DNA of 64,000 bases. Source: a virus. The notes beneath the pieces are model-generated. The model made no database searches, was not told where the DNA came from, and was given only the letters and a program-made list of their open reading frames with translations. Shown in pieces: positions 14,158-33,459 of the stretch; positions within the stretch are counted from its first letter, which is position 1; every line of letters begins with the position of its first letter. The position numbers were made by a program, and so were the translations under genes. Location of the stretch: positions 1-64,000 of the IMG/VR virus record IMGVR_UViG_3300031730_000002, one strand, 5' to 3'.

Positions 14158-14182
14158 CAGTCGTGTACCTGCTAGTCAGAAT
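14154..14182 (+). promoter_or_regulatory. sigma70-like promoter for scaffold/decoration/capsid genes
   Basis: TTGACA-17 nt-CAGAAT. Confidence 0.6.
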
Positions 14183-14206
14183 ACGCGGCAACGTACTGGA
14201 GCCCAC

Positions 14207-14830: not shown

Positions 14831-14839
14831 GGAACTCAC

Positions 14840-15313: not shown

Positions 15314-15355
15314 GCGCACCCCGTCACCGTTCTCTCAAACACCAAGGAGCCCACG

Positions 15356-16576: not shown

Positions 16577-16605
16577 GCGACAACGCCACTTCACAGGAGA
16601 GCTAC

Positions 16606-16902
16606 ATGAGCAAAATGGTCTACGTCAACAGCCACGCCCAGTTCCCGATGATCGACGCCGTGGACGGTACACGCTTCGAAGCTGGCGAGCCGAAGAAGGT
16701 GGCCGACAACCGCTGGATCGCAGCGCAGGTGGATGCCGGTGTGCTCTACTACTGCGATGCGGACGGCGTTGCGATTGTGGCCAAGGGCGCTGCCGATACC
16801 CCGGCAGAAACCCAAGCGAAGGCCGCGGACAAAGACCCCATGCTCACCAAAGAGGCCGTTCCGGCACTCGGCGGCGGCGTGAAGTCCGGCACCGCGACCT
16901 GA
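16606..16902 (+). CDS. hypothetical protein after capsid, 98 aa
   Basis: AGGAG RBS; followed by a terminator. Confidence 0.7.
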   Translation: MSKMVYVNSHAQFPMIDAVDGTRFEAGEPKKVADNRWIAAQVDAGVLYYCDADGVAIVAKGAADTPAETQAKAADKDPMLTKEAVPALGGGVKSGTAT

Positions 16903-16923
16903 GCGCAACAGGCACCTGTCTGG

Positions 16924-16947
16924 AGGCCCGCTACGAGCGGGCCTTTT
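16924..16947 (+). terminator. intrinsic terminator
   Basis: AGGCCCGCT-ACG-AGCGGGCCT-TTT. Confidence 0.8.
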
Positions 16948-16977
16948 CATTCCTGCAGCCCTGCGAGACAATGCGAC

Positions 16978-17460
16978 ATGCTGACCGACTACACCTCGTA
17001 TGACGACATCCGCGCAGCACTGGGTGTCGCGCCGGAAGAGATCACCGATGAGGTGCTCGCGCTCAACAGCTACGAGCAGATCCTGACGTTCGATCTCTAT
17101 GATCTGACGCCGGCCATCGGCCCCTACTACTTGGCGCTGTCTGGTGTGCTGACAGCCGACCAGGAGCGCTTCAAGGATCTGATGCAGGTCTACGCCGCCT
17201 ACGTGATCGCGAAGCATCTGCTCACCAGCCTGCCGATGTTCGGGCCACAGAGCATCAAGGACGCCAAGACCGAGATCCAGCGGATCAGCGACCCGTACAA
17301 GGCGACGCGAGAGGGTGTCCTGGCGTTCTACGAGCTGATGCGGGCCCGCTTGCTGGCCGCCTATCTGGTGCTGGTGCCCAGCGCGCCGATCTCGTCTGCC
17401 GCGGTCTTCAATGTGATGGCCGCAATCCCGCTGGGGGCTGACCCTGTTACTGGAGTCTGA
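16978..17460 (+). CDS. head-tail connector (adaptor)
   Basis: N-terminal YTSYDDIRAALG pattern; synteny. Confidence 0.65.
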   Translation: MLTDYTSYDDIRAALGVAPEEITDEVLALNSYEQILTFDLYDLTPAIGPYYLALSGVLTADQERFKDLMQVYAAYVIAKHLLTSLPMFGPQSIKDAKTEIQRISDPYKATREGVLAFYELMRARLLAAYLVLVPSAPISSAAVFNVMAAIPLGADPVTGV

Positions 17461-17462
17461 GC

Positions 17463-18293
17463 ATGCGCCTTAAGGACGCCGCCAAGCGCTTCAACGACGC
17501 GCAGGCATACGACGCCTACACCAGCGATCCGCTGTTCAAGTGCCAGTTCACGAGCTTCGATGACCATTCGGCAGATGGCGCCACGGCGCGCCGCCGGGTG
17601 CTCAACATCCCCGAGAACCTCACGATCCCGACGCGGCGCTGCATCCGGCTGTACGACCAGGCTTGGCTTGTGGGCGTGGGGTCGCCAGACAGCTTCGCCG
17701 GCAGCGCGATCCGGGTCCAGTACGGCATGAAGAAGGCCACGGACCTTGCCCTGCTGGCCACGCCTGCCGGCGTGCTCACGTCGACCGGCATGCGGGCCTA
17801 CGTGCAGAAGCACTACTACCGCGACAACATGGACACGAAGACCGAGTCGGACAACCAGATCGCCTGGAACGTCTTCGTCGCGCCGGTCGAGACTGTGATC
17901 ACCGGCATGTTCATCGTGGCCGATGTGCTGCTGCGGGTACGGAACACCTACCTGCCGGTCGAGGGCTTGCGCGTGGCGCAGTGTGATGATCTCGGGCCGG
18001 TCTCGATCGTTGCGGCCACCTTCACCGAGAACGGTACGTACAACCCACTGACAGACACTTGGGGCACTGTCAACATCGCCACGACGGTGATCCTGGTGGA
18101 CTACGCACGGCTGTACCAACTCGCCTCGAAGGCAGATCCGACCTACGAGCCGGGCGATGTCTCGGTACTTGTGCGGCAGGCCGCCGTGACCCCGGCTGTG
18201 GGGGCACGCTTCACCATGAATGGCAAAACCTGGAGGGTGCTGTCAGTCCAGTCTGAGCTGGATAGCTGGCTGCTGCACGCACGAATTGGTTGA
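17463..18293 (+). CDS. head closure/stopper-type protein
   Basis: C-terminal GARFTMNGKTWRVLSV...WLLHAR beta-barrel pattern; synteny. Confidence 0.55.
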   Translation: MRLKDAAKRFNDAQAYDAYTSDPLFKCQFTSFDDHSADGATARRRVLNIPENLTIPTRRCIRLYDQAWLVGVGSPDSFAGSAIRVQYGMKKATDLALLATPAGVLTSTGMRAYVQKHYYRDNMDTKTESDNQIAWNVFVAPVETVITGMFIVADVLLRVRNTYLPVEGLRVAQCDDLGPVSIVAATFTENGTYNPLTDTWGTVNIATTVILVDYARLYQLASKADPTYEPGDVSVLVRQAAVTPAVGARFTMNGKTWRVLSVQSELDSWLLHARIG

Positions 18294-18771
18294 GCTGGAT
18301 ACTTCCGGGATCGATGCGTTTCTCCTGCAGCTCAACACGCTGCAGGCGAGTTTCAACTCGCAGGTGAACGAGAGGTTTCGTCACTGGGTTGGTGTGATTT
18401 TCGAGGACATCGTGCAGCTCACTCCTCAGTGGTCAGGGAATCTCGCAGCCAACTGGTATGTGGGTGTCGACGCGCTGAGTGAAGCTGAGAATACGATACC
18501 CGAGAAGGCGATCATGTGGCCGCTCGATCTTTACGCCGCAGCGCATGAGCGTGGGGACGAGGCGGCTGTGGAAATTTCACTGCGCCGGTTTGCCGAAGAG
18601 ACGTTCAACTGGTCGGAGAGGGTCTATATTTACAACCCGACCGAGATCGCTCCCGATGTCGAGGCTCAATCCATCTACATTCGGCCGGAGAATCTGGTTG
18701 ATGGTCGTGTGCACATGATCGCGCACGCGGCCTTCTTCTACTCCAGCTACCAACCTCCAGGCTTGCAATGA
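18286..18771 (+). CDS. neck protein, HK97 gp10-like
   Basis: TPQWSGNLAANW resembles the TPVxTGxLR motif; TTG start inferred. Confidence 0.6.
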   Translation: MVELDTSGIDAFLLQLNTLQASFNSQVNERFRHWVGVIFEDIVQLTPQWSGNLAANWYVGVDALSEAENTIPEKAIMWPLDLYAAAHERGDEAAVEISLRRFAEETFNWSERVYIYNPTEIAPDVEAQSIYIRPENLVDGRVHMIAHAAFFYSSYQPPGLQ

Positions 18772-19184
18772 CTTTCGAAGCTGCACGAGTGGCGCTGGTG
18801 ACGCGGTTCGAGCTTGCGCTCGCTGCATACCCGACGACAAAACCGAAGGTGCAGTACCAAAACCGTGACCTGATCGACACCAAGGTGCAGGTCGAGCCTT
18901 GGGTTTCTTTCTCGATCGTGAATCTCACAGGCAAGCAGCTCGATCTGTCGAATAAGCCCATGAGTGGGCAATATGGCCAGATTGTGCTGGCTGCGATGGC
19001 CAGAGAGAACACCGGCAGTAGCAAGGCTAACCTGCTGCTTGACTACTTCCTGCCTTGGCTCGAATTGAAAGAGCTTGGCGTGGTACGCACCCATTCTGCG
19101 ATGGGGGCGAAGAATTTCGTGAAAGACGGCTGGGAAGGTTACCCGCTTTTGATTCCTTTCTGGTGGCTGCGAGTTGCCACTTGA
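18768..19184 (+). CDS. tail terminator protein
   Basis: 138 aa immediately before the tail tube gene. Confidence 0.6.
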   Translation: MTFEAARVALVTRFELALAAYPTTKPKVQYQNRDLIDTKVQVEPWVSFSIVNLTGKQLDLSNKPMSGQYGQIVLAAMARENTGSSKANLLLDYFLPWLELKELGVVRTHSAMGAKNFVKDGWEGYPLLIPFWWLRVAT

Positions 19185-19202
19185 CCCACCCTCGTACATA
19201 AT
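19174..19202 (+). promoter_or_regulatory. sigma70-like promoter for the tail tube gene
   Basis: TTGCCA-17 nt-CATAAT. Confidence 0.5.
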
Positions 19203-19238
19203 CGGCGCTGATCGCGCCTTCCTCATTCGGAGAAAACT

Positions 19239-20459
19239 ATGCCGACGCTTGCCTCAACCAGTCGTGTCCAGCTGGCCTACATTCTGGAGTCGGTCTTTGG
19301 CACGACGCCGGGCGCCGGCAACGGCAGCTACCTGCGTTGCACCGGGGAGTCGATGGACTTCGCGGTCACGAAAGAGACCTCCAAGGAGCTGCGCTCCGAT
19401 CGTCAGCTGTCGAGCGTTGTGCCGGTATCGGCGCAGGGATCGGGCGGCTTCAACTTCCACCTGAACTACGCCGAGTACGATCCGTTCCTGCAGTCGCTGC
19501 TGCAGAACGCGCCGACCGTGTTCGGCACCAATGGCGAGTCGGCCGGCGCATCGGTGGTGACCTTCGCTACCGGCACGCTGACCGCCAGCGTGGCGACGGC
19601 CGGCGCAGACAGCTGGGCTACCTTGCAGCTGGGCCAGTTTTTCCAGGTCAGTGCGACCGGCGACGCCAACGATCTTAAGGTGCTGCGGGTCTCGACCACC
19701 GTCGCCCCGACCACCACCGTCATCACGCTCGATGCGGGCACGCCAGCCGTCGCCAGTGTTGCAGTGGCGGGCGTCAAGCTGCGGGCCGCGCGCTTCACCA
19801 ACGGCGTGACGCAGACCAGCTTCACCATCGAGCGCCAGTCGCCCGACGTGACGCAGGTGCTGACCTACCGCGGCATGACCCCCAGCAAGATGTCGCTCAA
19901 GTTCGAGGCTGCGGCGCTGACCGATGGCTCGTTCGAGTTCATCGGCAAGGGTGCCACGCGTGGCACCGCGACGGCACTGCCCGGCACGCTGGTCGCATCG
20001 AAGACCTACGACATCCACAACGCAGCGTCCGGCATCGGCCTGGTGTGGGAAGCTGGCGTGCCGCTGGTTTCGACCTTCATCAAGAGCCTGTCGCTCGACT
20101 ACGACAACAACCACCGCGCGCAGCAAGCCATCGGCATCCTGGGTCTGGTGGGCGTCGGCTCGGGCACCATCCAGTTCAAGGCCACGATGGAGATGTACTT
20201 CGCTGACGGTGCGATGTACGACAAGTTCCTGGCCAACACCTACACCTCGCTGGCAGTGTCGTCGATCGACTCCACCGGCGCGGGCTACGTCTTCAGCTTC
20301 CCGAAGGTCAACTTCATGTCGTCGAAGATCGTCGCCGGTGCGAAGGACCAAGACCTGATGGCCAGCTTCGAAGTGATGATGGTGGCCGACGACAGCAACG
20401 CGGTTCCCGCGCTGCGCAAGACGATCTTCATCGATCGCGTCGGCCCGGCGGTTCCGTAA
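19239..20459 (+). CDS. major tail tube protein (with inserted beta domain)
   Basis: ESVFGTTP, LRCTGES, ELRSDR, SFTIER motifs; codon bias; terminator after. Confidence 0.85.
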   Translation: MPTLASTSRVQLAYILESVFGTTPGAGNGSYLRCTGESMDFAVTKETSKELRSDRQLSSVVPVSAQGSGGFNFHLNYAEYDPFLQSLLQNAPTVFGTNGESAGASVVTFATGTLTASVATAGADSWATLQLGQFFQVSATGDANDLKVLRVSTTVAPTTTVITLDAGTPAVASVAVAGVKLRAARFTNGVTQTSFTIERQSPDVTQVLTYRGMTPSKMSLKFEAAALTDGSFEFIGKGATRGTATALPGTLVASKTYDIHNAASGIGLVWEAGVPLVSTFIKSLSLDYDNNHRAQQAIGILGLVGVGSGTIQFKATMEMYFADGAMYDKFLANTYTSLAVSSIDSTGAGYVFSFPKVNFMSSKIVAGAKDQDLMASFEVMMVADDSNAVPALRKTIFIDRVGPAVP

Positions 20460-20475
20460 TCCTTGCCGGGATGAG

Positions 20476-20500
20476 GCGGGACTGCGGTCCCGCTTTTCTT
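20476..20500 (+). terminator. intrinsic terminator
   Basis: GCGGGAC-TGCG-GTCCCGC-TTTTCTT. Confidence 0.8.
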
Positions 20501-20509
20501 CCTTCACAC

Positions 20510-20537
20510 TTGACACTATTACCAACGCTGCTATATT
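20510..20537 (+). promoter_or_regulatory. sigma70-like promoter (extended -10)
   Basis: TTGACA-16 nt-TATATT with TG at the extended position. Confidence 0.55.
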
Positions 20538-20559
20538 GCAGCTTTCATCTGGAGATCTC

Positions 20560-20952
20560 ATGGACATCGGCAAAGAATTCACCACCGACCTCGGCAAAGA
20601 AGAGGACGGTGTGCCCGTTGAGTTGGGTGATGCGACGCTGATCATCGCGCGCACCTCGACCGACGCCTACGAAAAGATGGTCGACAGTCTGTTCAAGAAG
20701 CACAAGAAGGTGCTCGACATGAAGAACAAGGCCTCGAAGACCCTCTCCGACAATCTGATGGCTGAAGTCGTTGGCAGCACGGTACTGAAGGGCTGGAGTG
20801 GCGTGACCGAGAACGGCGTCGAGTTGCCCTTCAGCAAAGAGAATGCGATTCGCCTGAGCCGCATCAAGGACTTCCGGGCCTTCGTGATGTCGAAGGCCAG
20901 TGACTTCGAGCTGTACAAGCTGGCAGTCGAGGAAGAAGTCACGGGAAACTGA
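20560..20952 (+). CDS. tail assembly chaperone (gpG-like)
   Basis: Between tail tube and tape measure; VLKGWSGV motif; ends at a slippery site. Confidence 0.85.
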   Translation: MDIGKEFTTDLGKEEDGVPVELGDATLIIARTSTDAYEKMVDSLFKKHKKVLDMKNKASKTLSDNLMAEVVGSTVLKGWSGVTENGVELPFSKENAIRLSRIKDFRAFVMSKASDFELYKLAVEEEVTGN

Positions 20953-21341
20953 TCGAGTGCCTCCAGTGGCAGGTGGTGTGGGGGCACCAGATCGAGTACC
21001 TCGAAGGGCTCGAAGAGAAGCTCGGGATCACCCCGAAAGCGTTGCTGAATCGCCCCGAGCCTCACCAGCTCGGCGGTCGGCTTTATAGCGGCTTCAACGC
21101 CCTCTCGTCCAGCCGTGGGTACGGCATGGGCGGGCCACTTGCGATCACGATCGAGGCCATCTTTGCTTACTGCCAGATGTTCGAGATCGGCAGCCCTGAT
21201 GAACGTCTGACATTCCTTCGGGCTGTGCAGCGTCTTGATGCTGCCTACCTGGCTGCAGTGGCTGCTCGTGCTGACAACCCTACTGGGGCTGCAGTTGTCG
21301 ACCAAGGCATTCCCCTCGACAATCCAGCATCAAAGGGGTAA
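20943..21341 (+). CDS. gpT-like frame reached by -1 programmed frameshift at G GGA AAC (20943-20949)
   Basis: X XXY YYZ heptamer just before the TGA; the -1 frame reads KLIECLQWQVVWGHQ... into ORF 20973-21341. Confidence 0.8.
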   Translation, partial: GKLIECLQWQVVWGHQIEYLEGLEEKLGITPKALLNRPEPHQLGGRLYSGFNALSSSRGYGMGGPLAITIEAIFAYCQMFEIGSPDERLTFLRAVQRLDAAYLAAVAARADNPTGAAVVDQGIPLDNPASKG

Positions 21342-21347
21342 GAGCAC

Positions 21348-24300
21348 ATGGGTCCGTCACTCGCGCTAGGCGTAAACGCAAAGGGCCAAGAAACTCTCGT
21401 CGGGCTTAACGAGCAGCTGGCCCTGCTTCGCGCCAATCTCGCAGCTCTGAAAGGCTCCGGGAAAGCAGACCTCTCCGGTCTGTCGAGTGCCGCCGCAGAG
21501 ATCAAGAAGTTTCGTAGCGAGTTCGCAGACTCAAACGCAGGTCTGCGCACGTCATTCGCCGAGCTTGCCGAAGCGATCAAGGGCGGTTTCAGCAAGGTCT
21601 CCAGCGAAGCCGAGACATCAGGCAAGAAGACCCGCAGCATCGTCTCGAAAGAGCGTGCCGGCCTGCAGGCTGAGTACGAGAAGTACCTTGCCGATGGCGT
21701 CAAGTTCACCGACGCTCAACTGCAACAGATGAAGGACTCAGGTATTCGGCTTGTGGCTGCTCAAGCTGCGATGCTGAAGGCCCGACAAGTCGCTGCGCCG
21801 GCCAACAAGCAGATCCTCAGTGGCGGGGACTTCACCAATCCGCGCCCGCCGTCAGCCAAGGACACCGAGATCGAGGCGGCGTGGGCCGCCTACTCGAAGT
21901 CGACTGCTGACAGCGTTGCTGCCAGCAAGGCCTCCGCGTGGGTGCGCGCCGAGAGTGCGGCCAACACCGAGATCTCGGCAGCGATGGTGCAGTCCGACAG
22001 GGGCTTTGCTGAGCTGGCCAAGCAGTCAGCCGCGCGGCGTGTCGCTGCGGCTGAAGCGGCAGCTGCGGTGGAATCCAAGGGCATCGCTGCGGCAGAGGCG
22101 TTCGCCACCAAGCAGATCCTTGCCGATCGAGCTGAGGCCGACGCGCGGTACGCCGCCGGCCTGAAGGCGTCGAGCGACATCCGGCAGGCTGCGCAGACCA
22201 AGGCCCGTCAGGAGGACGCCGCGTGGGCCAGCCGTGCCCCGAAGTCGGGCATCAACGATGCGTGGGACAAGATCGAGAAGGATCGGGCCACGCAGCAGGT
22301 CTCCAGCTTCAAGCAGGCCAACCAGGGCTTCAAGGCTATCGAGATGGCTGCCGCGGCCGAGCGCGTCGCCGCGCACGAGAGCAGCGTTGCTGCTGAGGTG
22401 GCTGGCATCAAGGCAGCCGACGCCTTCGCCCATGCCGACATGCAGCGCCGGCACGCCAACAACGTGAAGGCAGCGAAAGAGTACGCCGACACCCAAGCTG
22501 AGGTGCAGGCGCTGCGTGAGCGCGATCAGAAGCTCGATGCCGCCTTCGCAGCATCGAACGAGCGGGCTCGCGCCCGCACGTTGGTGGGTGCGCGGGCCCA
22601 GCTCGACCAAGGCCTGCCGGTGGCCACGGTGCAGCAGAACTTCGGTGGGCAGGCCACGGGCCTTGCCCAAGCTGCAACAAGCCTGAAGAGCCTGCAGGCC
22701 GAGCTTGCGACGGCGCCCACCAAGACCAAGATCATGTCCGCGGCGCTCAACGACCTGCACAGCGCGGCGCGCGGGGTTGCATCGGGCTTTGGCGCCATGT
22801 TCCTGACGTGGGGCAACATCGCCCCGCTGCTGGCCGGCGCGGCGCTGTCCAACGCCTTCGTGCAGACCGTCAAGCTGGGCTCGGCGGTCCAGCAGACCCT
22901 CGCGATCATCAAGGAGCTGGGCGGCAATACTGTGGCCGAGGTTGGCCAGGTGAAGGCCACGTTGCTCGACCTCGCTGCAGCGGGTCCGTATGGGCCGCGC
23001 GAGATCGCGGAAGCGTTCAAGACGCTGTCACTCGCTGGTCTCGATGCGAAGCAGCAAGTTGCGGCAATCAAGGATGTCTTGAACTTCTCGGTTGCTGGTG
23101 ACCTCGGGATCGAGAAGGCCGCCGAGTCTTTGGTGACCATCGGTACTGCCTTCAAGTACACCGCAGACAACTACAACCGAGTTGGCGATGTCATCGCCAA
23201 GACTGCGGCTGTGTCTGTGGCCAGCGTTGAAGGCACGGCCAAGGCATTCGCCACTGCATCACCACTTGCGGAACAGTATGGCATCTCGCTTGAAGATGTT
23301 GCTGTGCAGGTTGCACTGCTGAGCAACATCGGCATCAAGAACACTGCGGCCGGTACTTCGATTCGTAACTTCTACCAGCAGATCTTGGCCGAGACGCCCA
23401 AGGTCGTGAACGCGCTCAAGCAGTTGAAGTTTGATCCGCGCGACGCACAAGGCAATGTGAAGGAGTCTGTCCAGCTTGTGACCGAGCTGGCAGCTGCACT
23501 GAACAAGCTGGATAACCGCGGTCGGCAGAATGCCATTGCGCAGATCACCAACGAGCGAGGCAATAAGGATGTCGCCTCGTTGCTCGATGCTGTCAACAAG
23601 ACAGTTGAGGTGAAGCAAGCAGACGGTACTGTCCAGATTTTGTCTGGCCTTCAGGCCGCCAAGCGAGCGATCGTTGATGCTGCAGGCTTCGCTTCGATCG
23701 CAGCAGCGAACATGTCGTTGACGACATCCAATCAGATTAAGGGCGTCTTCTCCGCTTTGCAGGGCTCGTTGCTGACTGCCTTCGATGAGATCGAGCCCTC
23801 GGTCCTGAAGGTTGCAGTTACTCTCAAGCAAGCGTTCAACTCCGACGACTTCAAATCGGCAGTGCAGGGTCTGGCCAGCACGGTGGCCAACCTGACGGTG
23901 TTCCTTGTTGAGCACGCTGCGGCTATTGGTGGGGTGATCGCCGCCTACATCGCCTTCAAGGGTGCGATGGCGGGTGTGGCAATCGCCACTGGTGTGCTCG
24001 CAGGTGTCACTACGCTGACCACCGCATACCGCGCAATGAAGGTTGAGGTGGCTGCCACCGCGCTGATCTGGCCTGTGCTCAGTACCGGAATGGCTGCGAC
24101 TACCGGTGTGACTGTGGCGAACACTGCAGCGACTGCCGGCAACACCATCGCGCAAGAGGCATCGGCCATTGCTACCACAGCAGCAGGTGTTGCTTCGCGC
24201 GGAGCAGCTACCGGATTTGCGCTGATGCGTGCTGCACTCGGCCCGATCGCCTTCCTGCTTGGCGGCATCGTGACCCTGTGGATGCTCTACAAGAGCACGA

Positions 24301-26510
24301 CCGCGAGCGCTAACGTGACTTCGGCTGAGGCCGCGGACATCACCGGACGCTTGCAGGTGGAGGCGCTGGAGAAGGAGCACAAGCGCCTCAAAGAGCGCAA
24401 CGACATGATCGAGGCCGGCACGGAAGCGCGCAAGGCCGACATGAACATTCAGAACGCGCAGGTGCTGGCTGAGCTGAGTGCTCAGCAGATCCGCGCGAAG
24501 AATGATGTGCAGAGCCAGGCTGATGCGGCGAAGAAGCGGCTCACTCAGGCTGAGGGTCTGAGCAACGTTCCAGGCGCAGGGCCGGAGGCCGAGTACCTTG
24601 CGCAGAACGACATCAACAAGGCCGCAGAAGACTACCGGAAGGCACAAGCCGCGGTGCTGGCACTTGAGCAGCAACAGACTGCCCAGCTTGGGCTGGTTCG
24701 TGCTGCTCAGCGCGGCATCATGGAAGAGAGCCAGCGCCAGGAAGATCGTCGGCTGAAGGAAGCTGCGGACTCTCGCCGCACGCCAGGGACAACTCCCTTC
24801 GTTAAGGTCAAGCCAGATCTGACTGCTTTTTCTGGCGCCAAGCGTGAGTTCCAAGAAGAAGAGCAGATGATCGCTAAGCGCTTTGGCGATCAGCAGAAGC
24901 TGCTCGACCTGAGCAACAAGAACAAGCTGATCAGCGATGCGGCTTACGCATTTCAGTCGGAGCAGATCGCTGACGCGCAGTACAAGGCGCAGGTCGCCGC
25001 GCTCGAACGCTATATCAGCGAGTCCGAAGGACTCATTGCAGCAATGCGCGCCAAGAACAAGGGCGGCAAGGCTGACGCAGAAGAGACCAGTCAATCGAAC
25101 CTGTCGAAGAAGTACAAGGAACAGCTTGAGTTCTTGAAGGCTGAGGCCGCGCTGAAGAAGCAAGGTGGCGAGCGCAAGATCGATGACTCCTTTGACAAGG
25201 AGACTGCCAAGATCGATCAAGCTGTGACCTTGGCAAAAGCTCAGCAGCAGATCGCGCAAGATACAGCCAACTTGACCGAGCGGCAGGTCGCCTACTACAC
25301 GGCTGAGAACGCCGCACTTGCGACGAGCAATGAGTTTTTGCGCGAGAAGCGCACGATCCTGACACAGTTGCAGGATGAGATCGCTCGCGCATCTGACACC
25401 AGTCAAGGCCCGGTCGATGACCCTTATGTTGCTTATCTTCAGAAGCGTGCTGACACACTGCAGGAGCAAGTGGACAAATTCACTGTCGCCCGCAACAAGG
25501 ACGCCGCCGCTCTCGGCCAGATCGCGGCTGACAACGCACAGCCCAACTGGGAGAAGATGCTCAACGGGTTCAAGAACGTTGTGCAGCAGATGGAGTCGGC
25601 CTACAACGAAGTGGTCGAAGGCTTCGTCACGAAGGGGCAGGACATCTTCGCGGATATCGTGAAGAACGGGAAGTTCTCATTGAAGAGTCTTCTCGATGTG
25701 ATCGAGAACGCGCTGATCAAAGAGGTCTATCAGACTCAGATCGCGCCGCTCTTCGCTGACATGGGTAAGGCAGTGGCTGGTGCGATCTTTCCGCAAGGCG
25801 GCAAGAACCCCAACTACAGCAACGAAGGCAACAACTACAAGATCGGCAGTGTTGACACGGCAGCGTCTAACACATCAAGCGCGTTCACGTCTCTGCAGAC
25901 CACTGGCATCACGCCCACGACCTCAGCTTTCGGCACACTCAAGCTGGCTCTCGATGCCGCGGCTGCGGCTGCCTACCGCTTGGCGAATAGCGGCGGTGGC
26001 GGTGGCTATGGTGGGTTGGGCAAAGTCACCGGTAGTGGCGGCAGCAGCGGTGGTGGAGTTGATCCTGGTGGTGATGGCGGCTACACGGACTACTACTCTG
26101 CGAAGGGGAATGTCTTTGGCTTTGCCAGGGGCGGAGCCTTCACCAACTCGATCGTGACCGAGCGCACGCCGTTCCATTTTGCTCGCGGAGGCAAGTTTAG
26201 TCGCGGCGAGATGGGCGAAGCTGGCCCCGAGGCTGTCATGCCTCTGAAGCGAGGCGCCAACGGTGCGCTCGGCGTGGCGATGATGGGTGGTGGTGGCGGC
26301 AACAACACGTCGGTCGAGGTGCACAACTACGGCGACAGCAAGGCACGCACCGAAGAGAAGAAGAATCCGGATGGCAGCAAGATCATTCGGGTGATCATCG
26401 ATCAGACGAAGCGCGAGGTTGCAGGTGACATTCAGCGCGGGGGGCAGATTGGTGACGCGGTCGAGACCCAGTACGGCATGAATCGGGCTAACGGCTTGCC
26501 GCGTCGCTGA
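21348..26510 (+). CDS. tail tape measure protein, 1720 aa
   Basis: Ala-rich helical; TP901-type core (AGTSIRN); C-terminal MGEAGPEAVMPL motif. Confidence 0.95.
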   Translation: MGPSLALGVNAKGQETLVGLNEQLALLRANLAALKGSGKADLSGLSSAAAEIKKFRSEFADSNAGLRTSFAELAEAIKGGFSKVSSEAETSGKKTRSIVSKERAGLQAEYEKYLADGVKFTDAQLQQMKDSGIRLVAAQAAMLKARQVAAPANKQILSGGDFTNPRPPSAKDTEIEAAWAAYSKSTADSVAASKASAWVRAESAANTEISAAMVQSDRGFAELAKQSAARRVAAAEAAAAVESKGIAAAEAFATKQILADRAEADARYAAGLKASSDIRQAAQTKARQEDAAWASRAPKSGINDAWDKIEKDRATQQVSSFKQANQGFKAIEMAAAAERVAAHESSVAAEVAGIKAADAFAHADMQRRHANNVKAAKEYADTQAEVQALRERDQKLDAAFAASNERARARTLVGARAQLDQGLPVATVQQNFGGQATGLAQAATSLKSLQAELATAPTKTKIMSAALNDLHSAARGVASGFGAMFLTWGNIAPLLAGAALSNAFVQTVKLGSAVQQTLAIIKELGGNTVAEVGQVKATLLDLAAAGPYGPREIAEAFKTLSLAGLDAKQQVAAIKDVLNFSVAGDLGIEKAAESLVTIGTAFKYTADNYNRVGDVIAKTAAVSVASVEGTAKAFATASPLAEQYGISLEDVAVQVALLSNIGIKNTAAGTSIRNFYQQILAETPKVVNALKQLKFDPRDAQGNVKESVQLVTELAAALNKLDNRGRQNAIAQITNERGNKDVASLLDAVNKTVEVKQADGTVQILSGLQAAKRAIVDAAGFASIAAANMSLTTSNQIKGVFSALQGSLLTAFDEIEPSVLKVAVTLKQAFNSDDFKSAVQGLASTVANLTVFLVEHAAAIGGVIAAYIAFKGAMAGVAIATGVLAGVTTLTTAYRAMKVEVAATALIWPVLSTGMAATTGVTVANTAATAGNTIAQEASAIATTAAGVASRGAATGFALMRAALGPIAFLLGGIVTLWMLYKSTTASANVTSAEAADITGRLQVEALEKEHKRLKERNDMIEAGTEARKADMNIQNAQVLAELSAQQIRAKNDVQSQADAAKKRLTQAEGLSNVPGAGPEAEYLAQNDINKAAEDYRKAQAAVLALEQQQTAQLGLVRAAQRGIMEESQRQEDRRLKEAADSRRTPGTTPFVKVKPDLTAFSGAKREFQEEEQMIAKRFGDQQKLLDLSNKNKLISDAAYAFQSEQIADAQYKAQVAALERYISESEGLIAAMRAKNKGGKADAEETSQSNLSKKYKEQLEFLKAEAALKKQGGERKIDDSFDKETAKIDQAVTLAKAQQQIAQDTANLTERQVAYYTAENAALATSNEFLREKRTILTQLQDEIARASDTSQGPVDDPYVAYLQKRADTLQEQVDKFTVARNKDAAALGQIAADNAQPNWEKMLNGFKNVVQQMESAYNEVVEGFVTKGQDIFADIVKNGKFSLKSLLDVIENALIKEVYQTQIAPLFADMGKAVAGAIFPQGGKNPNYSNEGNNYKIGSVDTAASNTSSAFTSLQTTGITPTTSAFGTLKLALDAAAAAAYRLANSGGGGGYGGLGKVTGSGGSSGGGVDPGGDGGYTDYYSAKGNVFGFARGGAFTNSIVTERTPFHFARGGKFSRGEMGEAGPEAVMPLKRGANGALGVAMMGGGGGNNTSVEVHNYGDSKARTEEKKNPDGSKIIRVIIDQTKREVAGDIQRGGQIGDAVETQYGMNRANGLPRR

Positions 26511-27370
26511 TGGCACTCCCGCAAATCCTTTTGCCCTACGGGACGCCACCGTTCCTGCGGGATACGCACGAGCTTGAGACGATCTCGCTCTATGCGAACA
26601 CACAGGTGCAGACCGGTGCGGCGATCCGTCGTCGCATGTGGGTCAGCGCACCGCGGTATGCCAATGTGGTGCTTGAGCTGAGCACGCCGCTGATGGAGGA
26701 CTTCGATGAGTTCTACGAAGAGACGCTGGGCGGTGGTGTCAAGAAGTTCTCTGCGCAGGTCCAGAACCAGGGACCAGGTCTTCTGTGGTGGTCGTGCCGT
26801 TTCTTCGAGCCTTACACGGTCGAGTATCTCGGCGGCCTTTGGTGGCGTGTCTCGGCCAAGCTGATCTTGTTCGATGAGGGCAGCGAGGATGGTCCGGAAC
26901 CTACAACGCTGGTTGGTAGTGTTCGTGTTGATCTACAGGCTACTGCTTTGCTGGTGGTCGAGCAGCCGTTGAGCGGTAGCGTGACGATCGCACTTGAGTT
27001 CAATCCAAACATAACTGCCTTGTCAGGTTCGGTCGTCGCTGCGCTGGAATATGCAACCTACTTTGGACCGGCACCTGTCGGATCTGCTGCAGGTACATCG
27101 ACAGTGTTGGGTGTCAAAGCTGGTCCTTTGGTTGCTGCGGCTGCAGGCACATCGACTGCATCTGCAGTCGGTCGAGGTGTTGCTTCGACGGTGGGGTCTT
27201 CGGCAGGTGCTGCCGTGGCCAGTGGGGTTGGGGGCAGCAATGTTGGTGTTGGATCTGCGGCAGGCACATCGACTGCCAACGCTGTTGGGCCGGCTGAGTA
27301 CTTGCTGCTCGAAGACGGAGTTAGCTACTTGCTGCTCGAAGACGGCGTTTCAAAACTGATTTTGGGGTAA
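26510..27370 (+). CDS. distal-tail (Dit-like) protein 1 with C-terminal repeat arm
   Basis: FDEFYEETLGGG...CRFFEPY...WRVSAKL; then 3 LxGSV repeats, 4 AAGTST-type repeats and YLLLEDGVS x2. Confidence 0.65.
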   Translation: MALPQILLPYGTPPFLRDTHELETISLYANTQVQTGAAIRRRMWVSAPRYANVVLELSTPLMEDFDEFYEETLGGGVKKFSAQVQNQGPGLLWWSCRFFEPYTVEYLGGLWWRVSAKLILFDEGSEDGPEPTTLVGSVRVDLQATALLVVEQPLSGSVTIALEFNPNITALSGSVVAALEYATYFGPAPVGSAAGTSTVLGVKAGPLVAAAAGTSTASAVGRGVASTVGSSAGAAVASGVGGSNVGVGSAAGTSTANAVGPAEYLLLEDGVSYLLLEDGVSKLILG

Positions 27371-27373
27371 GCA

Positions 27374-27919
27374 ATGGCTGATACGAAACTCACAGACCTG
27401 ACCGCGATCACCAGCACGGACGGCTCTGAAGCTCTGTATGCGGTGAAGGGTGGAGTACCAGGGTCGCTCAATATCGATGTGATCTGCAATCGTGCAGTAG
27501 CGCTTGTGCCTGCAGCGCCTGAGAGCATGTACTACTTCGGCACTACGACTGATGCCACACCAACTGACCTGACAAACGACGGCACAGGCAGTTTTTCCGG
27601 CTCTAACGGTCTGCTTTTGGATTTTGGTGCTGGCCCCGGTGTCGTTGGGTATGAGGCGATGCTGGTCGCGCACTCGACAAGTGGTGAGCATCTCTTCTCG
27701 ACCACGAAGAATGTGGCCAGCTATGACCTGAGCGGGCCTACGGCAGCCTTGCTTGGAACGGACACCTTCACGGTCGTTGATGATTCTGCCGGGGCGTCTG
27801 CTTGGGTCGTGACTACGGTCGTCGACCCCACCACGATGTATCTGTACTTCCAGGTGACCGGAGACATTGGCACCACGATCACATGGGGCCTGCGCCTCAC
27901 GCCTGTGCGCCTGCAATGA
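27374..27919 (+). CDS. tail fibre/tip accessory protein, 181 aa
   Basis: MADTKLTDLTA N-terminus typical of fibre proteins; beta-rich. Confidence 0.55.
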   Translation: MADTKLTDLTAITSTDGSEALYAVKGGVPGSLNIDVICNRAVALVPAAPESMYYFGTTTDATPTDLTNDGTGSFSGSNGLLLDFGAGPGVVGYEAMLVAHSTSGEHLFSTTKNVASYDLSGPTAALLGTDTFTVVDDSAGASAWVVTTVVDPTTMYLYFQVTGDIGTTITWGLRLTPVRLQ

Positions 27920-28764
27920 ACCAGTACCCTCTGACCCTGCCAGGGCCATCTAAGATCCTGCTGAAGCCGGCCGAGCGCCGCCGTGTGTCTTCGCTCAGCG
28001 AGGGCTTGCAGCAGGTGTTGGGGCGTCAGCGTGACTTCCTCGGTGTCGAGGAAGTCGAGTGGGAGTTCGTGGCATCGTACGCCGAGATCTTCGACACCTG
28101 GTGGAAGGATGAGCTGGTCTATGGTGGGGGCTGGTTCTCTGCAGGTTGGCCGTCTTCTCGCTTGCTGACTGGAGGCAACCGACGCTTCATTACAGTGCCG
28201 AAATGGACGCTGATCGGGCACGAATACTGGCGTGTGTCTGCGGACCTTGAGCTGCGCGGTGGTGCTGTGCCTATGGAGCCGGGCGGCACACGGCCCTACG
28301 ATATGTATGCCTCCTTTCCGAGCCAGGCAGGGAACAACCGACTGATGTACGGCGGGTTCTCTGAACTTACCTACCCATGGACTCTGCACGTCACTACGCA
28401 CAACACTGCGGTTGATATTGCGGCAGGGCCTGTAGTTGAGTTCACTTTTACTGTGGTCAATGTGGACACGGTGAACTTCTCAGCCCCAAGTTTCTCTCCG
28501 GTCACAAGCACAACAACCCGAACAGTCTCTCTTCGTGACTTCGATACCAACAGTGCGACCATCCGGGCGCTTAATACGCTTCCAGGCAACTTCTACACGA
28601 CGCAGACCATCACAGTGCATGCGACGGTTGATGGCGTGGATATCGGGCAGGCTTTCCAACTTATCTGCAATCCGGATGAGACGACCAACTCCGGCACTGC
28701 TGTCGTCACCGGCTATCCAGGCGGGCGCACCACCTACGCTGATTACACCTGGAGCACTTTCTAA
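27916..28764 (+). CDS. distal-tail (Dit-like) protein 2 with C-terminal extra domain
   Basis: FDTWWKDELVYGGGWF...RRFITVP...WRVSADL parallels 26510-27370; ATGA coupling at 27916. Confidence 0.6.
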   Translation: MNQYPLTLPGPSKILLKPAERRRVSSLSEGLQQVLGRQRDFLGVEEVEWEFVASYAEIFDTWWKDELVYGGGWFSAGWPSSRLLTGGNRRFITVPKWTLIGHEYWRVSADLELRGGAVPMEPGGTRPYDMYASFPSQAGNNRLMYGGFSELTYPWTLHVTTHNTAVDIAAGPVVEFTFTVVNVDTVNFSAPSFSPVTSTTTRTVSLRDFDTNSATIRALNTLPGNFYTTQTITVHATVDGVDIGQAFQLICNPDETTNSGTAVVTGYPGGRTTYADYTWSTF

Positions 28765-29334
28765 ATGCCTGTCTACCTGCCAGCAATCAACGGCCTCAAA
28801 GTGAGCCAAGCCTACGCTGAAGCCATGTCTTCAGAGCTGATCACGCGCGTGATGGTCTTGTGCTACGAGTTCAATCATCCCGAGTTCGTCGATGAGAACG
28901 GAGACCAGGAAGCCATCCGCATCGTCAACGAGTATCTCGACATGACGATGACGCTCGAACCTGGAGCGCCAATGAACGGAGGCGAAGCTGTGCTGTTTAC
29001 CGCGCTGCCGTGCCGTGTCTCCGGGCCGAACGAAGGAGACAGCGGAGAGGCGCAAGGCATCTCACTCGAAGTCGACGGAGTCAGCGGCGAGCTGGTCGAA
29101 CGCTTGCGACTTGCACTCAACTCATCGGCGCCGGTGACAGTCATGGAGCGTATTTACGCGAGCGATGATTTGAGCGGTCCGGCGCAGTTGCCTGTATTGC
29201 AGATGATCTTGCGCAATGTCTCGGTTGGTGATGTGACAGTCACTGCCAACCCAACGTTCTTTGACGCGTCGAACAACCCGTTCCCTCGCACTGAGTACTC
29301 GAAAGAGGAATACGCAGGACTGGCATCGCGATGA
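28765..29334 (+). CDS. DUF1833-like minor tail protein
   Basis: EFNHPEF...IRIVN...LEVDGVS...ERIYASDDLSGP...FP; precedes NlpC/P60. Confidence 0.75.
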   Translation: MPVYLPAINGLKVSQAYAEAMSSELITRVMVLCYEFNHPEFVDENGDQEAIRIVNEYLDMTMTLEPGAPMNGGEAVLFTALPCRVSGPNEGDSGEAQGISLEVDGVSGELVERLRLALNSSAPVTVMERIYASDDLSGPAQLPVLQMILRNVSVGDVTVTANPTFFDASNNPFPRTEYSKEEYAGLASR

Positions 29335-29759
29335 AACACTGGGCCTACGAACATATCGGCAAGCCTTACACGGATGGCAACGACGGCTTGCCTATGGACG
29401 GTCCTGACACGTTCAACTGTTGGGGTTTTGTGCGCTTCATCTTTCGCACGGTGCGCGGCATTGAGATGCCGTTGGTGCACATCGATCGCTTCTTGTCTGA
29501 TGATGCAGCGAATCGAGTGGCGATCCGGGAAGTCTTCTCCAAGAGCGGCTGGCGTCCAGTGAGAGACTCGATCCCGCAGGAGTTCGACATTGCGCTGACA
29601 TCGAATGTGAACGGTAGACACGTAGGCATCGCCAGTCACGTGAATGACCGTATGCATTTGATCCATGCGATCGAGCGTGAGGGGGTGTCTGCGATCTCAT
29701 TCGCGGATCTGTGGATGCTTGGATATCGCAAGCCGACTTTCTGGAGATACCAAGCGTGA
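29331..29759 (+). CDS. NlpC/P60 family tail-tip protein
   Basis: IGKPY...GPDTFNCWGFV...HVGI...IHA. Confidence 0.9.
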   Translation: MKHWAYEHIGKPYTDGNDGLPMDGPDTFNCWGFVRFIFRTVRGIEMPLVHIDRFLSDDAANRVAIREVFSKSGWRPVRDSIPQEFDIALTSNVNGRHVGIASHVNDRMHLIHAIEREGVSAISFADLWMLGYRKPTFWRYQA

Positions 29760-32575
29760 ACACTTTGCCTGCGCTGTTGCCGACCGCCCGTATTTGGGAC
29801 ATCCCCTTCGACGGTGAAGAGGTTGATCCGCTGTTTGCTTACCACCCTTCGCTCGGCGGCTCTATTCGTGACTGGATTCCGCCGGGTTGCGGGCGCGCGA
29901 TGGTGATCGTCAATGGTGTCGCGCTGATGCAGCGTGAGTGGATCTTCCGTCCAGTGCTTCCAGGAGACGTGATCGACTGGCACTTGCTGCCGACTGGTGG
30001 CGGTGACAACAAGGGCACGTCACGTCAAGTACTGACGATCATTGCGATCATTGTCATCGCCTATTTTCTTGGGCCTGCAGGCGCAGGTCTGTCAGGCACC
30101 GAACTCGCGGTGGCGACAGTAGCTGCAAACCTTGCGGCCACAGTGCTGATCAACGCGATCATTCCGATCAAGGCACTTGATGTCAGCGCGAACTCGGCAT
30201 CGTCGGTCTATAACGTCGCGCTGTCTGCCAACTCAGCTCGTCTGAACCAGCCGATCCCGGTCATCTATGGTCGCATGAAGACCTTTCCGGACTTCGCCGC
30301 TCAGCCTTATTCCTACTACGCCAACAACAATCAGTACTACGCCGCGGTCTTCTGCATCGGGCAGGGCCACTACACCATCGAGCGGGTGATGATCGATGAC
30401 ACGAACATCCGCAACTTTGAAGATGTGAAGTATCGCATCCTGCCTCCAGGCTCATTGCCTACGCTGGTGCAAACCAATGTGGTGACGGCACCGGAGATCG
30501 CAGGCCAAGAGCTGAAGGCTGGGCGCTTCACCGCAGGCTACACAGTCTGTGCTGCAGGCTACGTTGTTTCGCGCATCGAGATCGATGTGACGATGGATCA
30601 AGGCATCGGCTACATGGAGAACGACGGCTCGATCACGCCGTTCCCATTGGATATGCGAGTCGACGCACGCTACGTCGATGACTTCGGTGTGCCCACCAGC
30701 GCGGTGACCGGCTCGGCGTCTTGGTTCAACATCATGCTGCCGAACATCACCGGGGCAACGCGCACACCAATCCGCCGGACCTTTGGTGTGGACATTACGC
30801 CGGGTCGGGTCGAGGTGCGGATGACTCGCACAACACTCTTCTACACCGACAACCACTACGTCAACACTGTCAACTGGGCGTCGATGCGTGGCTTCATTGT
30901 CGACGCCGATGGGGCAGTTCTGCACGCAGGTGCAACACACATGGAAGTGCTGATGAAGGCCAGCGAACAGCTGACCGGCTTGAATCAGCGCAAGGTGAAT
31001 GTGATCGCGCGCCGAAAGCTCAGCGTGCAGACTGCCACAGGCGTGTACGGCCCACTTGCGGAGACCCGCAGCATCGCTTGGGCGATTCAGGACATCTGGC
31101 TCAACCAAGATTACGGTGCGCGACAGGCATTCAGCACACATGACTACGACACCTTGGTGATCCTGGATGCCATTTGGGCAGCCCGCCAGGACTACCTCGA
31201 CATCATCTTCGACAGCCGCATCACTGTGCGTGAGGCGTTGAAGATCGTGACGCAGGCGGGTCGCGCTATTGCCTATCAGCGCATGGGCATGCTGACCGTG
31301 GCACGCGATCAGATGCAGACGCTTCCGATCGCAGGCTTCAGTGGGCGCAACATTGTGGCTGGCAGCGCGACGATCGGATATGCGCTACCGACACCAGAAA
31401 CGGCTGACGCAGTTGTTGTTGAGTACTTCGACAATCGCATTTGGGACTGGGTGCCTGTGGTCTGCCCGGCGCCTGGTGTTGTGACGCCGGTCAACCCAGT
31501 GACGCTGCGGCTTGCAGGCATCACGCAGTACTACCAAGCCAAACGCGAGGGTACTTACAAGGCCGCTGACAACCTCTGGCGCCGCGAGTTCCCTCGGTGG
31601 CAGACCGAGCTGCTGGGCCGGCTGCCGACTTACGGAAGTCCGGTACTCTTTGCCCCGGCGATGCCGGGCTGGGCACAGAGTGGTGATGTGGTTGATGTGA
31701 GCGGGCTCAGCATCACGCTCAGCGAGCCCGTAGTCTTCGAGACTGGTGTCGACAACTTCATCAGCTTCATGGGGCCTTACGGCAACTATGGCGCCGCGAT
31801 CGTCGCATCTCCAGGCAGCGACTCGAACACAGTTGTGCTCGCATCAGCGCCAGCCTTCGCTCTGGTCTTCAGCGATTCAGATCGAGCGCGCACGCGCTAC
31901 ATCTTCGGGCCGCAAGGTCACGCAGAGATGATGGTGCGCATCTTGAGCTTGCAGTACAAGGGGCACTCGGAGACCGGGCCGATCGTCGAGCTCTCTGGAG
32001 TGTCGGAAGACAACCGCGTGCATGCTGCTGACAACGAGTTTTTGCCTGTTGGTGGGGTGGTTCAGAGCCCAGTGCCTACCAGTGAAGCCGGCGACTTGGA
32101 CAATCCGCCTGTCGGTGAAGGTGCACCAGGTGACGGCGGCGAGTACTACTACACCGTCGACATTGGAGATCCTTGGATCACCGAGACCACATCTTTCGCT
32201 GCGCCGAAGTCAATCAGCTTCACGTTCAAGAACGATGGCACACTTCTCAGCGACCCGACCTATCCAGGGTCTGATGTGCACCCGCTCTGGATGCTCTATG
32301 GGGCGGTCGAATCGTCGATTGCTGCGCAGTACGAGGTACGAGCAGTCATCACTTCTACTGACCCGGTTATTCCTACCGATTTTGATTTGGTGGCAACTTT
32401 CACAGATGACACCGGGGCTTGGCACAACCTCGGCGCGGATGTGACCTACACACTGAATCTGACAGCCGGCGAGACCGCCATTGTGCAAGGCTATTTTGAG
32501 ATTCGGGATGTCGCGACGCATACAGTCCAGGACTCTGGCGGTATGCTCTTTGCGATCTACACCAGCATCATCTGA
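29756..32575 (+). CDS. tail tip/central fibre hub (gpI/gpJ-like), ~939 aa
   Basis: NSARLNQPIPVIYG, IGQG and TRSIAWA motifs; GTGA coupling. Confidence 0.85.
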   Translation: MNTLPALLPTARIWDIPFDGEEVDPLFAYHPSLGGSIRDWIPPGCGRAMVIVNGVALMQREWIFRPVLPGDVIDWHLLPTGGGDNKGTSRQVLTIIAIIVIAYFLGPAGAGLSGTELAVATVAANLAATVLINAIIPIKALDVSANSASSVYNVALSANSARLNQPIPVIYGRMKTFPDFAAQPYSYYANNNQYYAAVFCIGQGHYTIERVMIDDTNIRNFEDVKYRILPPGSLPTLVQTNVVTAPEIAGQELKAGRFTAGYTVCAAGYVVSRIEIDVTMDQGIGYMENDGSITPFPLDMRVDARYVDDFGVPTSAVTGSASWFNIMLPNITGATRTPIRRTFGVDITPGRVEVRMTRTTLFYTDNHYVNTVNWASMRGFIVDADGAVLHAGATHMEVLMKASEQLTGLNQRKVNVIARRKLSVQTATGVYGPLAETRSIAWAIQDIWLNQDYGARQAFSTHDYDTLVILDAIWAARQDYLDIIFDSRITVREALKIVTQAGRAIAYQRMGMLTVARDQMQTLPIAGFSGRNIVAGSATIGYALPTPETADAVVVEYFDNRIWDWVPVVCPAPGVVTPVNPVTLRLAGITQYYQAKREGTYKAADNLWRREFPRWQTELLGRLPTYGSPVLFAPAMPGWAQSGDVVDVSGLSITLSEPVVFETGVDNFISFMGPYGNYGAAIVASPGSDSNTVVLASAPAFALVFSDSDRARTRYIFGPQGHAEMMVRILSLQYKGHSETGPIVELSGVSEDNRVHAADNEFLPVGGVVQSPVPTSEAGDLDNPPVGEGAPGDGGEYYYTVDIGDPWITETTSFAAPKSISFTFKNDGTLLSDPTYPGSDVHPLWMLYGAVESSIAAQYEVRAVITSTDPVIPTDFDLVATFTDDTGAWHNLGADVTYTLNLTAGETAIVQGYFEIRDVATHTVQDSGGMLFAIYTSII

Positions 32576-32586
32576 CCGAGAAGACC

Positions 32587-33459
32587 ATGAGCCAACTATC
32601 CAACTACACCGAGAACGAGCTTGCCGATTTCATTCGAGGGCAGGGAGCGGCGGGCATCAACGCCATCTCGCTCTTCTACATCGGGCTTGCGACTGCAGCG
32701 AGCGACGGCAGCATCACGGAGTGCTCTGGCACCGGGTATGCACGGCAAGCGTATGGGCGCGGCTTGACCCAGTGGTGCGGTACTCAAGGCTCTGGCACTA
32801 CGCTGGCCAGTACTGGGGTCAGCCACGCGATCAGCAACAACAACTCATGCTCCTTTGGCACATCGGGTGCAGCGTGGGGCACTGCCACACACGCAGTGCT
32901 GTACAGCGCAATCACTGGCGGCAATGTCATCGCTTACTGCGAACTGCCCAGTCCGATCTCTATCGGGTCTGGTGTGCCGGTTAGCTTGGCTGCAGGCGCG
33001 ATCTCGATGACGTTGGGGTTGACTGGCGGGTTGAGCAACTACCTGTCCAACAAGCTACTCGATTTTGTGTTTCGCGCCGTGGCCTACACGATGCCGGCCA
33101 ATCTGTTCTTCGGCCTGTTCACGACCGCGCCGACGAATGCTGGTGGCGGCGTCGAGGTGTCGGGTGGGGCCTACGCCCGCCAGAGCCTGCCGGCGTCTAT
33201 GGCTGGCCTCTGCGGTACGCAGGGTGCTGGAACCACAGTGGCCAGCACCGGTACAAGCGGTCGAATTGCCAACAACCTGACCCTTGCTTTCCCCACTCCA
33301 ACGGCCAACTGGGGCACAATCACGCATGAGGCGGTTTTCGATGCTGTGAGCGCTGGGAACCTGCTCTTCTGGAACGTGCTCGATGTGCCCCGCACGGTGC
33401 TCTCAGCCAGCAGCCCGCAGACGCATGCAGCAGACACATGGGAGCTGACCTTTGCCTAA
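32587..33459 (+). CDS. tandem two-domain paralogue of the 142-aa filament subunit
   Basis: LSNY...GL.T...YARQ...F...WGT.TH...GN repeated twice. Confidence 0.75.
   Translation: MSQLSNYTENELADFIRGQGAAGINAISLFYIGLATAASDGSITECSGTGYARQAYGRGLTQWCGTQGSGTTLASTGVSHAISNNNSCSFGTSGAAWGTATHAVLYSAITGGNVIAYCELPSPISIGSGVPVSLAAGAISMTLGLTGGLSNYLSNKLLDFVFRAVAYTMPANLFFGLFTTAPTNAGGGVEVSGGAYARQSLPASMAGLCGTQGAGTTVASTGTSGRIANNLTLAFPTPTANWGTITHEAVFDAVSAGNLLFWNVLDVPRTVLSASSPQTHAADTWELTFA

Follow-up and report, generated by a model that had tools for sequence, protein, structure and literature searches.

The window analysed here is a stretch of 64,000 nucleotides that holds the structural module of an 85,865-base uncultured virus record, and the genes listed below for it all lie on the plus strand. 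We judge a 555-aa open reading frame (ORF; 4382-6049) to be a putative terminase and a 506-aa ORF (6117-7637) to be a putative portal. Further along lie a 142-aa protein (7973-8401), a single-domain member of the Gp80 family of bead proteins, a 421-aa protein (8473-9738) and a 1190-aa protein (9749-13321) that comprises an N-terminal domain, an Ig-like domain, about 38 AAGTST-type units and a C-terminal domain of about 90 residues, and to which we refer as the giant rope. More head and tail ORFs occupy 13357-21341 and lead up to a 1720-aa tape measure (21348-26510), recognised by its size and position. Immediately behind it is the subject of this analysis, a 286-aa distal tail protein (Dit; 26510-27370) that also bears AAGTST units. 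The module continues with a 181-aa protein (27374-27919), a 281-aa second Dit paralogue with a similar N-domain (27919-28764), a DUF1833 protein annotated in phrog as a minor tail protein (28765-29334), an NlpC/P60 protein (29331-29759), a gpJ-like central fibre (29711-32575) and a 290-aa tandem Gp80-Gp80 protein, a covalently fused pair of beads (32587-33459). The gene for this tandem bead thus lies in the tail module, 5.2 kb downstream of the Dit gene, and that for the single bead 18.7 kb upstream of it.

The start of the Dit gene lies at the tape measure's stop codon, and the order in which tape measure, Dit, DUF1833, NlpC/P60 and gpJ-like genes follow one another places the hub and central-fibre genes downstream of Dit. 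Residues 5-122 match phrog_384 (E 1.2e-11), and in an AF2 model built from an alignment with 18 homologues residues 1-130 (26510..26899) are predicted with a pLDDT of 85-93. The modelled domain is a tail-tube-like β-sandwich of the DTP type: Foldseek matched it to the DTP of the Shigella siphophage Sf11 (9occ_C; E 1.8e-5, probability 1.00), to lambda gpM (8iyk_E; probability 0.99) and to the T1 DTP (9l9p_H; probability 0.96). Because the gene directly follows the tape measure and because the N-domain is predicted to have this fold, we conclude that the 286-aa protein is a distal tail protein of the Dit or lambda gpM type, and we refer to residues 1-130 as its ring domain. A Dit of this type would form the hexameric ring between tube and hub, on its own or jointly with the second paralogue. 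The original prediction had called the protein Dit-like, a label that gene position and fold both bear out. In the second paralogue phrog_384 matches residues 3-120 (E 3.6e-5), and the C-domain is a globular β-domain without a repeat arm. In most related loci the next gene after that of the arm-bearing Dit, or the next but one, encodes a paralogue with the same N-terminal pattern.

Beyond residue 130 the pLDDT of the Dit model falls below ~52 and the chain is predicted to be unfolded, with low-confidence hairpins drawn for its repeat units. Such values are as expected of a segment that would fold only on a partner. Seven units of 17-22 aa fill residues 132-262 of this arm, and they fall into two classes. 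The three class-1 units (residues 132-186; 26903..27067) are hydrophobic strand units of the pattern L-x-G-S-V-x-hydrophobic-x-L, spaced by 17-22 aa, and read, in order, LVGSVRVDL, LSGSVTIAL and LSGSVVAAL. The four class-2 units (residues 187-262; 27068..27295) are AAGTST units of ~19 aa each, recognised from profile matches and shuffles. The arm ends in a tandem motif, YLLLEDGVS twice and then KLILG (27296..27367). The original prediction had read four AAGTST repeats at the end of the Dit, three different and more hydrophobic units just before them, and a match between the AAGTST repeat and that of the 1190-aa protein. All three statements hold, with residues 187-262 reading as quoted there, with a third AAGTST unit that is degenerate, and with a profile score for the match that lies beyond the range of shuffled sequences.

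A profile made from 29 units of the 1190-aa protein scores 16.1, 14.5 and 16.9 bits at Dit residues 190-202, 208-224 and 246-260, respectively, and only -3.5 bits at the degenerate third unit (223-240). The AAGTST stretch of 76 aa as a whole scores 32.8 bits, compared with a mean of -18.8 and a maximum of -1.1 among 2000 composition-preserving shuffles, and its best single unit scores 18.6 bits, where no shuffle exceeds 9.1. Three exact copies of the hexamer AAGTST are present on the Dit and ten on the 1190-aa protein; at least one copy arises in 252 of 200,000 shuffles (0.13%) of the Dit stretch. The complete 85,865-base record was translated in six frames; of its 1260 ORFs with 40 aa or more, the AAGTST profile matches the Dit and the 1190-aa protein only, the Ala/Gly-rich tape measure giving no match, and no other ORF of the record matches a class-1 profile. 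The original prediction had named a shuffle control and a proteome scan with the repeat profile as checks on itself, and the repeat passes both, with none of the 2000 shuffles reaching the real score and no third protein among the 1260 ORFs. The composition bias of both regions would be the basis for a chance resemblance between two low-complexity A/G/S/T-rich stretches, but the shuffles, the three exact hexamers, the whole-record scan and the conservation of the units in homologues speak so strongly against coincidence that we consider it ruled out.

The likeness is one of peptides. At the DNA level the best matches between the Dit units and the gene for the 1190-aa protein reach 84-85% over 34-37 nt, and the serine of AAGTST is encoded by TCG throughout the three Dit copies, whereas eight of the ten units of the giant rope use AGC or AGT. 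Given this weak DNA similarity and the different serine codon families, we hold that the resemblance is kept at the peptide level. A recent DNA duplication or a gene conversion between the two genes was also considered and is ruled out by the shortness of the DNA matches and the differing serine codons.

The end motif has relatives elsewhere. Dit homologues with AAGTST units, and many without them, have related tandem ends, with two or three copies of hydrophobic-x-(L/R)-E-D-G, and the rope protein of the cultured phage Lacusarx (L196:7456-9087, LAV_00108) terminates in three LLP/LEVEDR-type copies. Ropes may share such EDG-type tandem ends as a terminal plug or anchor; a literature search on the LLLEDG motif returned nothing relevant. 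The 181-aa gene that follows the arm opens with MADTKLTDL, and a similar start is found after the ELREDG-ended Dit of locus L059 and not in L028 or L040, so that an LLxEDG end followed by a gene opening with MADTKLTDL is seen in two of four loci with such ends.

In the 1190-aa protein the AAGTST profile finds 38 matches between residues 343 and 1101. Autocorrelation of the ropes peaks at lags of 20 and 40 residues, and even lags exceed odd lags, which indicates an alternating residue pattern of the kind found in strands. The Ig-like stretch ahead of the units (residues 218-285) matches the PDB entry 5lxk, a 'Decoration protein' (E 4.5e-4). Sister ropes with the same position in the head module are found on the minus strand of two related records, one of 1342 aa with 52 units used for its profile (G001, C1:36309-40334) and one of 794 aa with 21 units used (G004, C1:24566-26947), where the rope gene starts within the end of the bead gene. 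By eye, the C-terminal domain of about 90 residues looks conserved in both sister ropes; it is possibly a virion anchor.

Both bead proteins belong to the Pfam family PF23140 ('Podophage GP4 fiber I protein gp80'), which matches the 142-aa protein once (E 4.8e-16) and the 290-aa protein twice (E 7.6e-58). This agrees with the original prediction, which had treated the 142-aa protein and each half of the 290-aa protein as related subunits. The 290-aa protein also matches gp80 of the phage GP4 (8jou_a) by sequence (E 9.9e-11), and its AF2 model (pLDDT 82, pTM 0.79) matches the same chain by fold (Foldseek E 1.7e-5, TM 0.74), so that a bead of the Gp80 fold is encoded by the same phage as the arm. 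Further Foldseek matches of this model include the Bas63 whiskers (9mt4_K and 9mt4_L), an Sf14 neck chain and a tail-fibres entry of phage 7-7-1 (9rkv), which we take to be the garland protein (PMC12796354). The second-ranked Foldseek match of the tandem bead model (32587-33456) is a 953-aa tail chain of Haloferax tailed virus 1 (9h4p_BD; E 5.3e-4, 386 columns), a hint that an archaeal virus may have Gp80-like domains in arrays. The present record holds a further ORF of ~130 aa on the minus strand, 17 kb past the window (81062-81457), with a twin-arginine-like leader; the Gp80 profile matches it weakly and in part (E 0.002), and its product may be bead-like and exported.

The single bead is common and keeps characteristic company. 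We found 477 IMG/VR relatives of the 142-aa protein, the best 80 of the 477 being 61-85% identical to it. Among the IMG/VR loci with at least 6 kb of flank on both sides of the bead gene (n = 35), 25 encode, no more than 7 kb from that gene, a protein that is periodic at ~20 aa, compared with 1 of 710 control ORFs, and several of the loci scored as negative for periodicity also contain ropes when inspected by eye. In the cultured Sphingobium phage Lacusarx the bead gene is directly followed by that of a 543-aa protein with related units (the pair LAV_00107/00108), and the Citromicrobium phage RXM is a further cultured phage with a bead of this subfamily.

Homologues of the Dit itself separate the two classes of unit. 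The ring domain is kept in all 18 aligned homologues, as are the three class-1 units, one homologue (P0022) ending inside them, and diverged class-1 units, two to six in each, are present in 19 of 19 IMG/VR Dit homologues that adjoin a tandem bead gene. The number of AAGTST units, by comparison, varies from 0 to about 5-6 and is often odd (1, 3 or 5). In six homologues (P0013, P0015-P0018 and P0020) one AAGTST-type unit stands right at the N-terminus, ahead of the ring domain, from which it follows that a unit may precede the Dit fold as well as follow it. The homologues end in an LLLEDG-type tandem, in ILREDG-type motifs or in globular domains of ~130-180 residues, and in those of ~400 aa the units lie between the ring and the globular end domain. 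A profile search of 1.84 billion representatives returned 3545 members of the Dit family at E ≤ 0.001, and AAGTST-type units are found on 10 of the best 150 of these 3545. From the copy numbers and this proportion, we regard the AAGTST block as a minority insertion between an older arm and the end motif. The portability that the original prediction ascribed to the repeat is thus evident in its variable copy number, in its N-terminal placement in six homologues and in its presence on 10 of 150 representatives. Cultured relatives of the 286-aa Dit were found neither by tblastn against 50,697 phage records nor by a pattern scan of 185,579 species genomes.

The two classes of unit also differ in the bead genes that accompany them. 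A Dit with class-1 units co-occurs with a tandem Gp80 gene placed after the gpJ-like gene in 19 of 19 loci approached from the tandem bead, several of which are the same records fetched twice, and in 6 of 6 loci with enough flank approached from the Dit. For the AAGTST units we combined whole-record PF23140 searches with reading of the records. All three records that have AAGTST units on the Dit and include the head module (the present record, G000, together with G001 and G004) encode a giant AAGTST rope, of 1190, 1342 and 794 aa, respectively, along with a single-domain bead. The five near-complete relatives without AAGTST units (G002, 99% complete; G003, 92%; G006, 88%; G007, 97%; G008, 100%) all encode the tandem bead only, and have neither a single bead nor a giant AAGTST rope. 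A further record with AAGTST units on its Dit (G005) was excluded from the count, its head module being off the contig. One more relative (G010) has no AAGTST unit on its Dit and encodes a single bead of 134 aa with its own rope of 254 aa (L115:6207-9401) built of six G-T/S-G-x-L units. It is compatible with a rule by which AAGTST on the Dit implies a single bead, and the dissimilarity of its rope units to AAGTST indicates that the sequences of rope units diverge between lineages of one bead subfamily. Rope unit and bead gene thus go together in 3 of 3 records and are jointly missing in 5 of 5, a small sample; with G010 counted against the association, a one-sided Fisher test on these few records, whose lineages are not independent, gives p ~0.05.

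We observe directly the shared repeat, the membership of both partners in the Gp80 family and the phyletic and neighbourhood patterns, and the AAGTST units are most likely docking sites for small bead proteins. The reading that we favour, with a probability of roughly 55%, is that the 286-aa Dit combines a ring with a rope arm that docks Gp80-family beads, which would give the tail tip a short side fibre of beads on a rope. In this lambda-like siphophage the ring domain would sit under the last ring of the tail tube, and the remaining 156 residues would form a rope, a fibre-dock arm that is predicted to be unfolded on its own. Each β-strand unit of ~19 aa would pair with an edge strand of a Gp80-family bead by β-augmentation. 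The four AAGTST units would most likely bind the free 142-aa bead, the same docking unit being repeated ~38 times on the 1190-aa protein, so that one bead gene might decorate both a very long fibre and the arms at the tail tip. In the podophage A1002 one dimer is bound per about 30 rope residues (PMC13730344), and in GP4 the figure would be ~46 residues if its gp79 is the rope; on either figure, 76 residues and four units suggest about two dimers per arm, and probably two 142-aa dimers would be bound if two units serve one dimer. For the fused tandem bead, the best candidate for a docking site is the set of three class-1 units beside the ring, since the whole lineage has both and the tail module contains no other periodic segment; the pairing is suggested by joint universality, which shared ancestry alone could explain. 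The arm might act in adhesion to the host surface. The comparative genomics of AAGTST units, single bead and giant rope fits docking of this kind.

A different view of the AAGTST stretch, which we think unlikely though well worth weighing, is that it is a spacer or self-associating stalk, an A/G/S/T-rich β-hairpin or trimeric fibre segment that binds no bead and sets the reach of whatever lies at the distal end, namely the LLLEDG plug here and a globular domain in other homologues. Its likeness to the 1190-aa protein would then be that of a common fibre-forming repeat. The low-confidence hairpins drawn by AF2 can be read in this way, but an exact hexamer preserved across serine codon families, as in this stretch, is rare in linkers. 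Copy number varies freely, odd numbers included, which also sits poorly with a strict rule of two units per dimer and so counts against bead docking, and in the ~400-aa homologues, where they stand between ring and globular domain, the units could be a mere stalk. The degenerate third unit of this Dit and the lack of sequence similarity between either class of unit and the gp79 units of GP4 weigh against docking as well. A match between arm and partner rope within each genome is likewise incomplete, since the own-genome rope gave the best profile match to the arm in two of three genomes (n = 3 only). Against a stalk, the only scored records with AAGTST units on this Dit are those that also encode a single-domain bead and a giant rope; the same type of unit adjoins a bead gene across many phages, and the solved precedents use such repeats as docks.

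The arm might also be a rope on which the beads are distributed otherwise than we propose, with the AAGTST units bound by the fused tandem bead, or by the two beads indiscriminately, and with the class-1 units serving as strands of the ring or as contacts to the second paralogue. The tandem bead is encoded in the tail module, much closer to the Dit gene than the single bead is, four units would fit two tandem beads, and the pairing of class-1 units with the tandem bead draws on joint universality only. Yet at least ten related records encode the tandem bead alongside a Dit that lacks AAGTST units; this bead therefore does not need the unit, and it is the single bead that tracks the AAGTST units. 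We consider this arrangement improbable, and retain the docking of the free 142-aa bead on the AAGTST units as the preferred assignment.

If the AAGTST units do dock the free bead, the arrangement could be taken one step further, to a possible and more tentative reading in which the units form a peptide address code. The 142-aa bead would be shared by a ~38-unit fibre encoded in the head module and by the Dit arms; each arm would be a hetero-chain, with the tandem bead on the hydrophobic units and free dimers on the inserted AAGTST units; and AAGTST would be a transferable module that retargets the bead to other proteins of the virion. Were this true, the insertion of repeats would make virion decoration programmable. 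Apart from any such reading, a lambda-like siphophage that encodes beads of the Gp80 family has a rope-type repeat on its Dit, a platform that usually bears receptor-binding proteins. If the arm docks beads, then siphophage tail tips can bear side fibres of the chain-like type, transfer of a 19-aa unit from one scaffold to another can recruit a subunit that already exists, and the sequence of the units writes the order of beads on the rope. With 3545 cluster representatives in the Dit family and 477 IMG/VR loci in the bead subfamily, the design may be widespread in uncultured phages.

To our knowledge, the solved structures of rope-and-bead fibres all date from 2023 or later and come from three podophages and from myophage necks only. 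The solved examples with beads of the Gp80 family are GP4, VP1, A1002 and Bas63, and in them Gp80-type dimers are strung along a repeat rope via augmented β-sheets (PMC13730344; PMC12609058). The docking put forward in the original prediction therefore has a solved precedent, in that GP4, Bas63 and A1002 carry bead dimers on repeat ropes. The kind of system is known; undescribed in the papers that we found are a rope on a siphophage Dit, two classes of unit, a tandem fusion of two beads, and a bead that would also serve a second rope of great length.

Fiber I of the Ralstonia podophage GP4 contains five gp80 dimers, a separately encoded rope and an Ig-like adaptor, gp77 (PDB 8JOU; Zheng et al. 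2023, J Mol Biol 435:168258, via PMC12609058 and PMC13730344). The present system resembles it in the bead family, PF23140, with matches to 8jou_a in both sequence and fold, and in a repeat rope of ~20-aa units. By our own parsing, gp79 of GP4, which is encoded next to gp80, has 11 units of ~20 aa; gp77 and gp80 are present among PDB sequences, gp78 and gp79 are absent from them, and the rope gene of 8JOU is named in no open paper. The AAGTST and class-1 profiles show no sequence similarity to the gp79 units, nor does the reverse search, and the 108-aa protein at 7634-7957 shows none to gp77 in a sequence comparison. We do not treat the lack of homology to a solved rope as defining, because the solved ropes themselves belong to different proteins. 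The rope of GP4 is separate and attached at the neck, whereas here it is a C-terminal extension of Dit with two classes of unit, and one of the beads is a fused tandem.

A second parallel is with the Pseudomonas podophage A1002, whose nozzle-rope protein gp39 bears seven gp40 dimers and four gp41 dimers in a fixed order (PMC13730344), a solved precedent for the ordered recruitment of two subunits that the original prediction put forward. As proposed for the present phage, the rope lies within a larger tail protein and two bead paralogues are assigned to fixed, consecutive stretches, which in A1002 bind by augmented β-sheets. A1002 differs in being a podophage with its rope on a split nozzle protein and with both beads as free dimers, whereas we propose a fused tandem bead near the ring and a distal free bead that is shared with a second rope of ~38 units. 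In the collar-whisker of the myophage Bas63 (and of Sf14) a 12-mer Ig-like collar is extended at its N-terminus by the rope, which carries two whisker dimers (PMC12609058; PDB 9MT4). There too the rope is fused to a ring-forming virion protein, and the arm is short, with about two bead dimers; its location at the neck rather than the tail tip, its different family of ring protein and its single class of unit set it apart. C-terminal extensions of Dit are themselves known to dock receptor-binding proteins, in Sf11 (a gp17 helix that docks tailspikes), T5 and p2 (PMC12724387). The ring fold is alike in these proteins, and the logic that we propose here is shared, in that a variable C-terminal extension recruits host-binding proteins, but they use helices or folded domains to hold trimeric spikes or fibres, whereas the Dit described here would use a repeat of strand units to hold beads of the Gp80 type.
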